A stretch of 26,384 bases of DNA from a candidate division WOR-3 bacterium (GCA_965648775.1 CBFGIH010000001.1:6405-32788); one strand, 5' to 3'; numbered from the stretch's first letter, positions 1,737-5,912 are shown. Program-made: numbers and translations. The notes: generated by a model from the letters alone, not told the origin.

Positions 1737-2789
1737 TCACCGAATTTTTACAATCTTCACGGTTACATCCGTCCCTGCGTCGCTTAAGCGGGCGAAATAT
1801 ACGCCCCCGGATACGGAGCATCCTTTTTCGTCTGTCCCGTCCCAGAATACAGAATTGATAATACCTGAACTACGGAAAGACATGTCCTTCACCAGGCAGC
1901 CCGTTGCGGTATAGATCCGCACGCGCAAGGTCTCGATCAAGCATCCTGAATCATGGAGCGTGAATCGTATAGCGTTAGCAAACGGATTGGGCGCAGCGGT
2001 CATGGCTCGCGGCCATCCCGCATCATGATCTTTGATCCCGATATCCTGCTCAATCATGCCGTAAATATCATAGTCGGACAGGTTTTCTGACCAAAAACAT
2101 GATCGGTATCCGAGCCCGGCCGCGGCTGCCGGGTGTCCCCGAAGATGAAAGACGCTGTCAGAAATAACCATGGGGCCGGTGATCGGCTTACCGGCCTGAT
2201 CCAGGAACATGCCCCGGATCTGTCCTGGTCCGTTTTCCCAAACCAGAAAATAATTCTCGCCGTCAAAGACAAGGTCGGGATTGTTTTCCGCTACCAGCTC
2301 CTGAACCAGAATCATGGGCGTGTCGATCGGCATCCCGCCGCGAAGCAACCGGCCGAAAATATCCAGGGTACCGGTTGCGCCGAAATCCGGCCAGACGACG
2401 AGATAATCAGTGCCGTCGAAGGCCGCGGCTGGTCGCGCCGCGGCAGCGCTGATGGCGGCGATCCGCATGACCGTATCCTGCGGTAAGGCCTGATCGTCCA
2501 CAAATCGACCGCAGACCGCATCGAATTCGCGCGACCAGAGAATCAGCGTCTGGCCCGAGCCGCGCACCGCTACCGGATAATTATTGCCCTGGTCAATCGT
2601 ATAACCGGTGTCCATGACAATTCCCTGGGGCGATACGCGGGACGCAACCACGCCTTTATTTTCCCGCGCGTCCCAAAAAGAAACAATGTAATCTGCGCTG
2701 TTGAAAATCACGGATGGAATATTCTGACCGCCCTCGGCATTGCAGATGAAAACGGTATCCAGAATCGTCAATTGGGGCGTGACCCGCAC
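1737..2789 (-). CDS. C-terminal segment of a secreted repeat (beta-propeller-like) protein with a T9SS type A/FlgD-Ig C-terminal domain; probably translated in frame with 2811..3116 through a recoded TGA
   Basis: Repeats such as FDGTDYLVVWPD..DIFGRLL and FDGENYFLVWE. The C-terminus reads PNPF..VRIYTATGCLVK..VFWDGTDEKG..GGVYFARL..VKIVKIR. It has no signal peptide or usable RBS of its own and shares the frame of the upstream ORF. Confidence 0.8.
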   Translation of the reverse strand: MRVTPQLTILDTVFICNAEGGQNIPSVIFNSADYIVSFWDARENKGVVASRVSPQGIVMDTGYTIDQGNNYPVAVRGSGQTLILWSREFDAVCGRFVDDQALPQDTVMRIAAISAAAARPAAAFDGTDYLVVWPDFGATGTLDIFGRLLRGGMPIDTPMILVQELVAENNPDLVFDGENYFLVWENGPGQIRGMFLDQAGKPITGPMVISDSVFHLRGHPAAAAGLGYRSCFWSENLSDYDIYGMIEQDIGIKDHDAGWPRAMTAAPNPFANAIRFTLHDSGCLIETLRVRIYTATGCLVKDMSFRSSGIINSVFWDGTDEKGCSVSGGVYFARLSDAGTDVTVKIVKIR

Positions 2790-2795
2790 TCCCCA
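2773..2795 (-). promoter_or_regulatory. candidate bacterial SECIS-like hairpin downstream of in-frame TGA
   Basis: On the minus strand, TGGGG-A-GTG-CGGGT-CAC-G-CCCCA spans +16 to +38 after TGA(2811-2813): 5-bp stem, A.G mismatch, 3-bp stem and a 5-nt loop with G at position 2. Confidence 0.55.
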
Positions 2796-2810
2796 GATAT
2801 CAGCATTACT

Positions 2811-3116
2811 TCAACAGCTGTCCTGGATTGCCACCAGAAAATTAACACCATCAAACGCCGCATCGACCCATTCGCCGCGGTCACGAAGAATTTCCCGGCC
2901 TTCGGGATCGATAACCGTACCGTCATTCGCAATCCGGGCGGCAAAAACTGAGCGATCAGGAGGGTAATATCTGAGATCCAACCAGAAAACATAAAAAGTG
3001 TCATTATGGCTGATTACCGAAGGATAAAGTTGATCATTGAATGCTTCGGAAACAGGGAAGGAACTTCCCAGGAAAAGCAGCCACCATAAAGTCGGCATAA
3101 AATCAGGGATTAGCAT
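2811..3116 (-). CDS. N-terminal segment (signal peptide plus first repeats) of the same secreted protein; ends ...IQDSC-TGA (possible Sec codon)
   Basis: Hydrophobic N-terminus (MPTLWWLLFLGSS; alternative ATG at 3098) followed by the same repeat type (NDQLYPSV..FYVFWLDLR..SVFAARI..G.VID; FDGVNFLV). Confidence 0.75.
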   Translation of the reverse strand: MLIPDFMPTLWWLLFLGSSFPVSEAFNDQLYPSVISHNDTFYVFWLDLRYYPPDRSVFAARIANDGTVIDPEGREILRDRGEWVDAAFDGVNFLVAIQDSC

Positions 3117-3417: not shown

Positions 3418-4647
3418 ATGCCGGTCATTCTTGATTCGAATAACCGCCAAATTCCGGTCGGCGCCGAACTTATCGCTCTCAATGGACATCGAATCGACGA
3501 TTTCCTGGATTTTCGTTTTTATCATGAACCGGGCCAGGACCGCCGGGTCACCATCCGACACCATGGCCGGCGCCGACAAATATTGATTCGGGCGATGACG
3601 CCCTTAAACCTCACGCTGTCGGATCCGGTCTATCGTCGTTGTCAGAATGACTGCGCTTTCTGTTTTGTCAATGGCCTGCCCGGCGGACTCCGGCCCGAAC
3701 TTTATTATCGGGATGATGACTATCGGTTGTCTTTCCTGTTCGGTAATTTTTTGAGTTTAACCAATCTGACCGGAAAAGATATTTGTCGAATCGCCCGGCT
3801 CCGGCTTTCCCCCCTTTATGTCTCGGTCCACGCCACGGTCCCGGCAGTGCGCCGGCGGCTTTTTCAAAACAAACGGGCAGGATTAATCATGGAACAGTTA
3901 AAAAACCTGATTCGGTGCGGTATTGCGATCCACGCACAGGTGGTAGTTTTGCCGGGCATCAATGATGCCGCGGTATTGAACCGGACAATCAAGGATTTAA
4001 CCGCTCTTTACCCGGGCGTCGCTTCCATCGGCGTCGTGCCCGTTGGCGTTTCCCGCTTTTTGAAAGGAATCAAACCGATGTCGCGCCGCGCCGCGGCTGC
4101 AGTCTTGACCGCGGTCCAGCGGTTTCATGTTTTCTGCCGGCGAAAGTTCGGCCACGGATTAGTGTATGCAGCGGACGAATTTTATCTTAAATCCGGCACG
4201 GCCATTCCCGCCGCCGGTTATTATGACGATTTTCCCCAGCAAGAAAATGGTATTGGCATGGTTCGACGATTTATGGACGAAACGGCTCAGCCGAAATTGC
4301 GGCCGCCGCGTGCCGGACGGTTCCTGTTTCTCACCGGCGAACTTGCTTATCCCTGCCTGCGGCGCCTGGCCCGGATCCTGAGCAGCCGTGCCGGAAATAG
4401 TAAAATAAAAATTAAAGTCGAGCCCGTGCGCAACCGTTTTTTCGGTCCCGGGGTGAATGTCGCCGGCCTTTTGACCGGTCAGGACCTTGAAAAACACATC
4501 TCCCGAAATGGCCGGAAATTCGACCGCATCGTTCTACCGCCCACCTGCGTGAATGAAAAAAGGCGCTTTCTCGATAACTGGACCATTGACGACCGCCGGG
4601 TCATCGTTGCGCCCCCCACCCTCAAGGAATTAATGCGATGCCTGTAA
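3418..4647 (+). CDS. DUF512-domain radical-SAM-like Fe-S protein with N-terminal PDZ-like region
   Basis: CQNDCAFCFV (CxxxCxxC), LYYRDDDYRLSFLFGNFLSLTN, SVHAT, GINDAA, QQENGIGM, VNVAGLLTGQD; located directly upstream of der. Confidence 0.85.
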   Translation: MPVILDSNNRQIPVGAELIALNGHRIDDFLDFRFYHEPGQDRRVTIRHHGRRRQILIRAMTPLNLTLSDPVYRRCQNDCAFCFVNGLPGGLRPELYYRDDDYRLSFLFGNFLSLTNLTGKDICRIARLRLSPLYVSVHATVPAVRRRLFQNKRAGLIMEQLKNLIRCGIAIHAQVVVLPGINDAAVLNRTIKDLTALYPGVASIGVVPVGVSRFLKGIKPMSRRAAAAVLTAVQRFHVFCRRKFGHGLVYAADEFYLKSGTAIPAAGYYDDFPQQENGIGMVRRFMDETAQPKLRPPRAGRFLFLTGELAYPCLRRLARILSSRAGNSKIKIKVEPVRNRFFGPGVNVAGLLTGQDLEKHISRNGRKFDRIVLPPTCVNEKRRFLDNWTIDDRRVIVAPPTLKELMRCL

Positions 4648-5912
4648 TCGCCATTGTCGGCCGTAAGAATGTCGGAAAATCCACCATCTTCAACCGGCTC
4701 GTCGGCATGAAACGCTCCATTGTTTATCACGAACCGGGTGTTACGCGGGATCGGGTTTATGGGGAAATTCTCTGGCGGGGCCGAACTTTCACCGTGATCG
4801 ACACCGGCGGCTTTTTTCCCGAAGAAGAAATCACCCTGGCCGCTAAAATCATGAACCAGATCGAAATGGCGTTGCAGGAAGCAGATCTGATTTTTTTTGT
4901 CGTCGATAACCGTCAGGGCCTCACCGCGATGGATGATGAAATCGCCCGGCGCCTGCGCGTTCTCGGTAAACCGATCTTCCTGATCGTCAACAAAGTTGAC
5001 ACCAGCCGCGAGGAAACCAAAATGTGGGATTTCAGCCGGCTCGGTCTGGAACAAATCTTTCCGGTATCTGCCGAAGCCGGGCTGGGCTTTGGAGAAATCC
5101 TGGACGCCGCGGCCTTGCTCCTGCCCAAACCTTCACCGCTCCGGCGGGACAAGCGAATCAGAGTTCTGATTCTGGGACGACCCAATGCCGGCAAGTCCAC
5201 CCTGCTCAACACCATCATTCGTCAGGAACGAGCGATTGTCGACGAGCATCCCGGCACGACCCGGGATCCGGTGAATGCGCGCTTTGATTTCCGCGGTCAG
5301 GTCCTGGAGTTAATCGACACCTGCGGTTTCAAAAAACGATCCCGTCTCCAGGAACCGGTCGAATTCTATTCGGCCATGCGGGCCATCCGGTTCATTGACG
5401 AGACGGATATCGCAATCTTGCTGTTTGACATTACCCAGGGGGTGGTCGGCGAGGATCGCCGCATTTCCTCCCTGCTTTTGGCCAAAGCCCGGAGCATTAT
5501 CATTGCTCCCAACAAGATTGACCTGATTTCCAGAAAAGATGTGTCCCGGGTAATTCACGCCGCCCGTCAATCTTTCAACTATCTTGAATTCGCGCCGGTC
5601 ATCCCGATTTCGGCCCGATCCCGGCTCAATATCGAAATGCTATTGAATACGATCCTGGACGTTCACGCCGAAGGCGGAAAAACCGCGGACAAAAAAGTCC
5701 TGCGCGGTTTGACTGAGGGGTTAAAACCACCGGCCAATGGCGAAGTGGTGAAAATGGTCCAGACCGCAACGCGGCCGCCGGTTTTCCGCCTGACCGCGAC
5801 CCGGCCGCTCAAGGAAAATTACCTGCGGTATGTACGGCATGAAATCCGGCGTTATTTCGGTTTCCAGGGCGTGCCCGTGCTGTTGAAAACCACGGTGCTC
5901 AGGAAATCATGA
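4638..5912 (+). CDS. der: ribosome biogenesis GTPase Der (EngA)
   Basis: Two tandem G domains (GRKNVGKST/DTGG/NKVD and GRPNAGKST/DTCG/NKID), PGVTRDR and PGTTRDP switch motifs, C-terminal KH-like domain (RPPVF..YLRY..FGFQGVP). Confidence 0.96.
   Translation: MPVIAIVGRKNVGKSTIFNRLVGMKRSIVYHEPGVTRDRVYGEILWRGRTFTVIDTGGFFPEEEITLAAKIMNQIEMALQEADLIFFVVDNRQGLTAMDDEIARRLRVLGKPIFLIVNKVDTSREETKMWDFSRLGLEQIFPVSAEAGLGFGEILDAAALLLPKPSPLRRDKRIRVLILGRPNAGKSTLLNTIIRQERAIVDEHPGTTRDPVNARFDFRGQVLELIDTCGFKKRSRLQEPVEFYSAMRAIRFIDETDIAILLFDITQGVVGEDRRISSLLLAKARSIIIAPNKIDLISRKDVSRVIHAARQSFNYLEFAPVIPISARSRLNIEMLLNTILDVHAEGGKTADKKVLRGLTEGLKPPANGEVVKMVQTATRPPVFRLTATRPLKENYLRYVRHEIRRYFGFQGVPVLLKTTVLRKS

Follow-up and report, generated by a model that had tools for sequence, protein, structure and literature searches.

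The stretch of DNA analyzed here (26,384 nucleotides from a candidate division WOR-3 bacterium, GCA_965648775.1 CBFGIH010000001.1:6405-32788; hereafter "the window") raises the question of whether two adjacent open reading frames (ORFs) on its minus strand are separate genes or the two halves of a single gene with a recoded TGA codon. The TGA in question (2813..2811) shares its frame with an upstream ORF of 101 codons (2811..3116) and a downstream ORF of 350 codons (1737..2789), and it is followed by a hairpin that a previous reading of the nucleotide sequence alone (the sequence-only reading) had likened to a bacterial selenocysteine insertion sequence (SECIS) element. As the TGA is conserved, the RNA pairing is constrained, selA, selB and the selenocysteine (Sec) tRNA (tRNA-Sec) are present, and the predicted protein fold is continuous across the TGA, we consider it very likely that the hairpin (2795..2773) functions as a bacterial SECIS; the prediction, with regard to SelB binding and Sec insertion alike, is a computational one.

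The TGA and the protein on either side of it

The near relatives retrieved with the read-through product as protein query were 349-368 residues long and all matched only its last 76%, because public records split the gene at the TGA. In the contigs of three metagenome orthologs (50-64% identity), a 95-codon ORF runs up to a TGA, behind which the downstream ORF follows; the sequence across the TGA is Q-D-S-C-TGA-S-N-A-D. Overall, 45 relatives were inspected, comprising 15 distinct loci from metagenomes or metagenome-assembled genomes (MAGs), 29 loci fetched from genomes of the phylum and, from the genome of the window itself, a paralog on contig C4; all 45 carry Cys-TGA at the homologous position with the hairpin at the same distance. 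Loss of the pairing in homologs that keep the TGA, which the sequence-only reading had named as the finding that would speak against a SECIS, was thus not observed. One of the 15 metagenome or MAG loci is from a named MAG (Candidatus Stahlbacteria), and the Candidatus Stahlbacteria MAG SOIY01 belongs to the same order (locus L016 is identical to L062). The paralog on C4 (G000:C4:22318-23433, minus strand; locus L052:1297-2652) shows 34% identity and has R-D-S-C-TGA followed, with 24-nucleotide (nt) spacing, by a CGGGU loop on a GGAGUG/CACUCC stem.

A scan of the phylum identified a match to the gene in 97 of 272 genomes. Among the 150 matches listed, 136 contained one TGA, with open frames of approx. 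430-480 residues, and up to 7 copies were found in one genome; the other 14 were stop-free, with open frames of 461-956 residues, and the three of these that were read are repeat proteins of the ordinary type, in which R-(S/N)-G takes the place of the C-U-S of the Sec family. In the alignment of relatives, the protein is conserved on either side of the TGA.

If the TGA were a real stop, the locus would represent two genes or a pseudogene, with a downstream start at GTG 2789 or nearby and with the hairpin being either a by-product of coding or a regulator of re-initiation. Two ORFs are indeed what public gene callers annotate, and the GTG is conserved and has a purine-rich GGGGA ahead of it. 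However, the GGGGA abuts the GTG with no spacer, and as the starts called in public records differ among relatives (this GTG, another GTG close by, or an ATG located two codons past the TGA), there is no conserved independent start. The GTG also forms the 5' arm of the upper stem, and the argument of the sequence-only reading that the hairpin buries this codon, against independent initiation, was borne out. Moreover, the stop at this site is always TGA, never TAA or TAG, in family members, although TAA and TAG together end 458 of the 771 long ORFs of this genome, and a pseudogene would not hold both halves under purifying selection in 97 genomes.

The predicted protein structure bears on the same question. 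An AlphaFold2 model based on a 13-sequence alignment (mean predicted local distance difference test score, 79) is all-beta, with seven four-stranded blades (residues ~20-358) followed by a C-terminal beta-sandwich, and places the TGA within blade 2, in the loop that connects its strands 2 and 3. As the TGA lies inside blade 2, a stop there would split one blade of one propeller. Similarly, the hydrophobic N-terminus is found only on the upstream fragment and the sorting tail only on the downstream fragment, so that a separate downstream product would be devoid of an export signal and a separate upstream product of a sorting tail. We therefore regard two genes or a pseudogene as extremely unlikely, and treat the locus as a single gene.

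Constraint on the RNA stem

The hairpin reads UGGGG-A-GUG on its 5' arm, CGGGU in the apical loop and CAC-G-CCCCA on its 3' arm, an exact match to the sequence and position given by the sequence-only reading, and consists of 8 pairs and one A.G mismatch (2790 with 2778). The loop is 5 nt long, begins 24 nt past the TGA and has a G at position 2, all as had been read. The hairpin encodes residues W108-Q115, i.e., strand 3 of blade 2. As the stem overlaps the peptide G-V-R-V-T-P, nucleotide conservation alone could reflect the protein, and evidence at the level of synonymous sites and base pairs is given below.

In a codon alignment of 15 orthologs, the loop-closing Val codons are fixed (GTG at Val110 in 15/15 and GTC at Val112 in 14/14), as compared to 2-4 codons in each of the eight further Val columns that are conserved in these genes; the Val110 and Val112 columns are the only four-fold-degenerate conserved columns without codon variation. 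GTG was also found at Val110 in 41 of the 42 rows of a second alignment (A5). The third bases of Gly109 and Thr113, both of which are synonymous, face each other in the stem; among 38 distinct sequences they form A-U (17), C-G (10), U-A (2), G-C (1) or G-U (2), with mismatches in 6, including the A.G of the window. Neither coding nor a start codon explains this third-base covariation or the fixed GTC of Val112, which further argues against the TGA separating two genes.

Across 39 distinct sequences, 84.9% of the stem cells in the 9-pair helix form standard pairs, as compared to ≤52% of cells in slid-register controls, where the 3' arm was shifted by 1-3 columns. Three helix pairs changed on both sides, and the observed covariation score was reached by 0 of 500 shuffles; the 15-sequence set shows the same picture. 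Covariation of the stem in homologs, proposed earlier as a check, was thus found, with compensatory changes at three pairs and fixed synonymous sites in the stem. Position 2 of the loop is a G in 42/42 sequences and position 3 is G or U in 41/42; the 5-nt loops of 39 distinct relatives are CGGGU (22), CGUGU (14), AGGGU (2) and AGAAU (1). The distance from the UGA to the loop is 24 nt in every aligned sequence, with no indels, and the 15-nt spacer ahead of the hairpin is invariant in length within the family, while its synonymous sites vary freely. Hairpin energies in the family average -9.7 kcal/mol (range -5.2 to -15.1). At the position of the mismatch most relatives have an A-U, U-A, G-C, C-G or G-U pair, giving 6-9 contiguous pairs; in one clade the helix resumes after a 1-nt bulge on the 3' side. 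Overall, these sequence comparisons indicate that selection acts on the RNA, and not just on the protein, at the stem.

The published consensus for bacterial SECIS (bSECIS) elements (Zhang and Gladyshev, summarised in PMC13188914) specifies a loop of 3-9 nt, an upper stem of 4-16 bp, a G at loop position 1 or 2, as a rule with G or U after it, a UGA-to-loop distance of 16-37 nt and a minimum free energy (MFE) of ≤ -7.5 kcal/mol. Like the bSECIS model, the hairpin of the window lies in the coding region behind the UGA, and it is within these limits for loop size, loop G (followed by G/U), spacing and energy. The agreement with the consensus that the sequence-only reading had claimed holds for these features; for the upper stem, on the other hand, it holds only if the A.G mismatch is tolerated, as the window copy has 3 pairs, the mismatch and then 5 pairs, as compared to the contiguous pairs of most relatives and the bulged helix of one clade.

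Lower-stem pairs (2794..2793 with 2775..2774; columns 20-21 with 39-40 of A5) change alongside two amino acids, with Trp108...Gln115 in the clade of the window and Phe/Ile...Glu elsewhere, in step with two base pairs. This pattern suggests that RNA structure and protein co-evolved at the W...Q/F...E positions, although it may represent a single event shared by descent. With its stem placed on the code for a beta-strand that bears the invariant G-V-R-V-T-P motif, the hairpin, if it is a SECIS, would represent a clean natural case of RNA structure shaping a protein.

The E. coli fdhF SECIS has a GGUC loop and a bulged U and is bound by the C-terminal domain of SelB. The hairpin described here shares with it the G-then-U loop motif, a short G+C-rich upper helix and a fixed distance to the UGA; it differs in its loop (CGGGU or CGUGU), in having no bulged U on the 5' arm and in the placement of the loop approx. 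6 nt further from the UGA. Rfam covariance models, including those for SECIS families, returned nothing relevant in 2650..2900, even with E up to 10. A covariance model (R1) that we built from the family SECIS matches only the two paralogs in this genome; R1 is thus family-specific and not general to other SECIS elements. For the SelB of this lineage, the 42-sequence alignment would provide a ready SECIS model.

Selenocysteine machinery and other readings of the TGA

The genome, represented by a 1.73-Mb assembly of 299 contigs (68% complete), contains selA (542 bits, above the cut-off; contig C28) and, adjoining it, a full-length selB (339 bits, above the cut-off; C28:7296-9182), as well as a tRNA-Sec with anticodon TCA on contig C25. 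Across the order, selD was identified in 41 of 49 genomes and in 28 of the 30 high-quality ones, and it carries one in-frame TGA in nearly all of them. In relatives (loci L089 and L090), selD appears itself to encode a selenoprotein (A-G-U-A-x-K), with a GGUU-type loop approx. 33 nt past the TGA.

A SECIS would be unneeded if TGA were a sense codon genome-wide (genetic code 4 or 25), as is known in some uncultured lineages. Long ORFs in this genome (n = 771), however, end in TAA (367), TGA (313) or TAG (91); as TGA thus is a normal stop, a reassigned genetic code is excluded here. The other genes of the window are intact under translation table 11, and the presence of a dedicated tRNA-Sec and of selAB also argues against reassignment, to which we assign next to no probability.

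Alternatively, the UGA could be recoded without Sec, with the hairpin helping a near-cognate tRNA (for Trp or Cys) to decode it or pausing the ribosome without SelB. Such recoding would be compatible with the fact that neither selD in this assembly nor Cys-form orthologs, which would prove chemical equivalence of the site, were found. Conversely, the spacing, the loop size and the loop G[G/U] match those of bacterial SECIS elements; selA, selB and tRNA-Sec are present, and the lineage keeps a selD that itself contains a UGA. An invariant Cys lies beside the UGA, and CU pairs recur in selenoproteins (Table 1, PMC13188914); the simpler solution of a Trp or Cys sense codon is absent in the 45 inspected genes. 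We thus judge non-Sec recoding to be highly unlikely and favor insertion of Sec directed by the hairpin.

A number of observations weigh against a functional SECIS. The hairpin is the MFE fold of the 49 nt after the TGA (-11.7 kcal/mol; -10.7 kcal/mol for the isolated 23-nt hairpin), and folding of this region, another check proposed earlier, thus recovered it; yet it does not differ from dinucleotide shuffles (z = -0.16), 88 of 200 of which fold equally well. In addition, 394 of 3000 random TGA sites of the genome (~13%) satisfied a loose SECIS test (our own implementation of the published consensus). In view of these two results, thermodynamic stability was rejected as evidence. Agreement with the published consensus is weak evidence by itself, and the hairpin far exceeds chance only via the comparison with relatives; a single-sequence fold that is not unusually stable also fits a locus of two genes. 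The upper helix is broken by the A.G mismatch after 3 pairs and fails a strict rule of ≥4 contiguous pairs. The overlap of the stem with the invariant G-V-R-V-T-P motif accounts for part of the nucleotide conservation, and the sequences are phylogenetically related, so that the shuffle controls overstate significance. Under default settings, RNAalifold recovers only 5 pairs and reports a small covariation term, as the lower stem is variable and, in one clade, shifted in register; pairs were therefore counted explicitly instead. The closest relative (locus L060, 2230-2280, minus strand; genome G112; 50% identity) has a weakened upper stem. Furthermore, this assembly, which is 68% complete, yielded no selD, and no Cys-containing ortholog was found either in a search with residues 20-135 or among the stop-free matches of the phylum scan, so that the classical evidence of a Sec/Cys pair of homologs is missing for the family.

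In L060, the TGA and the CGGGU loop are kept, while Val110 is replaced by Leu (CTG) and Thr113 by Asn (AAC), leaving two closing pairs above a 2x2 internal loop (-6.7 kcal/mol); this hairpin is either a weak SECIS that is tolerated or part of a copy in decay. Genome G112 holds further TGA-containing copies besides L060. With regard to the Cys forms, homologs of this type are supportive but not obligatory for calling a selenoprotein. Cys forms were also sought with a profile among 1.84 billion representatives, but giant multi-repeat proteins dominated the result (43,009 matches) and made it uninformative; a word-based search for full-length forms of this kind, with residues 20-135 as query, returned only the known truncated entries.

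The mechanism of insertion would be the ordinary, already known bacterial one. With the ribosome at the UGA (2813..2811), the hairpin would be located just outside the mRNA channel, where the C-terminal domain of SelB would bind the apical loop (C-G-G/U-G-U, its second base being the invariant G) and the three invariant pairs, G-C, U-A and G-C, that close it. SelB with GTP would then deliver Sec-tRNA(Sec) to the A site, at the UGA 24 nt upstream of the loop, and the two annotated ORFs would be translated as one 459-residue exported propeller protein containing Cys101-Sec102. SelB binding, actual Sec insertion, export and the role of the Cys-Sec pair are inferred here.

A putative family of exported propeller selenoproteins

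In the predicted product, Cys101 directly precedes the TGA-encoded residue, giving a vicinal Cys101-Sec102 pair that might act as a selenenylsulfide redox centre or in the binding of soft metals. A scan of the protein against NCBIfam yielded matches to the C-terminal tail only, including a match to TIGR04183, a type IX secretion system (T9SS) sorting domain, with 20.7 bits against a cut-off of 23; this tail is common to approx. 35 other proteins of the genome. The genome also contains a PorV-like match (96 bits against a cut-off of 250) and, on contig C112, a PorU-like gene in two pieces (282 and 152 bits, each below the cut-off). The pieces are on the plus strand at C112:2357-4231 and 4263-5576 and cover model positions 3-628 and 634-1094, respectively; the split may stem from a frameshift, from an error in the assembly or from a further recoded site. 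Judged from these sequence matches, export by a T9SS appears plausible.

Structure searches identified generic propellers only (lyases, lectins, sialidases and CylK) and gave no functional lead. Likewise, the neighboring genes, which encode LptF/G, a DUF512 radical-SAM (S-adenosylmethionine) protein, Der, PlsY and GpsA, are housekeeping genes only and provide no hint of function. Generic propellers with the repeat F-D-G-x-N-Y-L-V-V-W ... D-I-Y-G-x-R-V (TIGR04275-like; the 43,009 matches mentioned above) share repeat and fold with the protein described here, whose Cys-Sec loop takes the place that a D-x-R-(S/N)-G-x-x-D loop has in ordinary blades. Ordinary members, on the other hand, have neither a stop nor a Cys at the site; C-U in blade 2 is found only in the subfamily of approx. 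430-480 residues.

Selenoproteins with a CU motif include SaoL, SaoC, SaoB, HgcA, MbdU, the KCU-star family and the Csac_0668 family, several of which handle mercury, metals or organometallic compounds (Table 1, PMC13188914). The invariant adjacent Cys-Sec is shared with these proteins, but none of them is a beta-propeller or T9SS-tailed, and no sequence similarity to them was found in the NCBIfam scan. Predicted selenoproteins located in the envelope, i.e., the FCYXU-type TonB-dependent receptor, the GSU2204 outer-membrane barrel, DUF1573 and UshA-like proteins (Table 1, PMC13188914), provide a precedent for Sec outside the cytoplasm. Their folds differ, however, from the soluble or surface propeller predicted here, which is also present as several paralogs per genome.

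The 2026 catalogue (PMC13188914), which covers 119 families and subfamilies, does not include the propeller family; neither this 2026 review nor the BSepDB paper mentions a propeller, a secreted or a T9SS selenoprotein, and a search of the literature on selenoproteins with T9SS, Por_Secre_tail or WOR-3 found nothing relevant. We tentatively suggest, at somewhat less than even odds, that the gene belongs to a previously uncatalogued, lineage-expanded family of exported seven-bladed propellers with an obligate Cys-Sec pair, and that this family, with at least two other T9SS-tailed families of the same order that carry a conserved in-frame TGA, points to extracellular selenium chemistry. If so, uncultured bacteria of the order that includes a Candidatus Stahlbacteria MAG would run selenium-dependent chemistry outside the cell. 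Such chemistry might consist of redox catalysis or of trapping metals or metalloids and would set these proteins apart, as a functional class, from the selenoproteins described to date, which are mostly cytoplasmic redox proteins. The family would be unusual in its large size, in being putatively extracellular, in its non-thioredoxin fold, its vicinal Cys-Sec and its many paralogs per genome, with no Cys form found. Given a functional SECIS, hundreds of public genes that are split into "hypothetical proteins" of approx. 95 and approx. 330-350 amino acids should each be joined as one selenoprotein. The features of the locus are listed in Table 1.

Table 1. Features of the predicted selenoprotein gene, in window coordinates
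Feature	Position	Strand	Support
Single gene, 459 codons plus TGA stop (1739..1737), with the internal TGA predicted to be read through	1737..3116	minus	one open frame
In-frame TGA (codon 102), predicted to be read as selenocysteine; context Q-D-S-C-U-S-N-A-D	2811..2813	minus	15/15 codon-aligned orthologs, 45/45 inspected sequences
15-nt spacer from UGA to hairpin foot (codons S-N-A-D-I)	2796..2810	minus	gap-free alignments
Predicted SECIS hairpin: 5' arm 2795..2787, loop 2786..2782, 3' arm 2781..2773	2773..2795	minus	fold, pair counts, synonymous-site fixation, covariation
GTG (Val110), ORF-finder start of the 350-amino-acid downstream ORF; forms the three loop-closing pairs	2787..2789	minus	
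Hydrophobic N-terminus, residues 1-25, probable export signal	3042..3116	minus	low-confidence helix in model
C-terminal immunoglobulin (Ig)-like, T9SS type A sorting-like domain, residues 375-459	1740..1994	minus	TIGR04183, weak FlgD_ig

Other candidate selenoproteins were also found in the genome. A naive codon-bias scan for TGA-interrupted genes was rejected, as antisense artefacts were on top and the propeller gene ranked 157th; addition of a hairpin filter gave usable candidates. One of these, a 651-codon gene on the same contig approx. 7 kb past the end of the window (G000:C1:40076-42028, plus strand; locus L040), has a FlgD_ig / Por_Secre_tail C-terminus and an in-frame TGA in the context H-T-C-U-T, followed by a 7-bp stem with a GGUC loop 20 nt after the TGA. 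In an order-wide scan, the matches listed for this gene that begin within the first ~100 residues all carry the TGA, and those listed that begin at approx. residue 190 or later carry none. From its sequence, this gene looks like a second family of Cys-Sec, T9SS-tailed selenoproteins. Another candidate (G000:C150:2-1675, minus strand; locus L041) combines Omp28-like and MAM domains with a sorting tail; its TGA, in the context G-U-P-Y-C, is part of a glutaredoxin-like UxxC motif, and a UGGAU loop begins 28 nt after it. G000:C53:3279-3950 was listed alongside this Omp28-like candidate. The GGUC and UGGAU loops of these T9SS-tailed candidates, at 20 and 28 nt and thus within the permitted spacing, were counted as support for a SECIS in the propeller gene, as was the GGUU-type loop of selD in relatives. 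Across the order, the Omp28-like C150 protein has both TGA-containing and stop-free full-length forms (50-56% identity), and many Omp28-like paralogs of approx. 350 residues carry one TGA.

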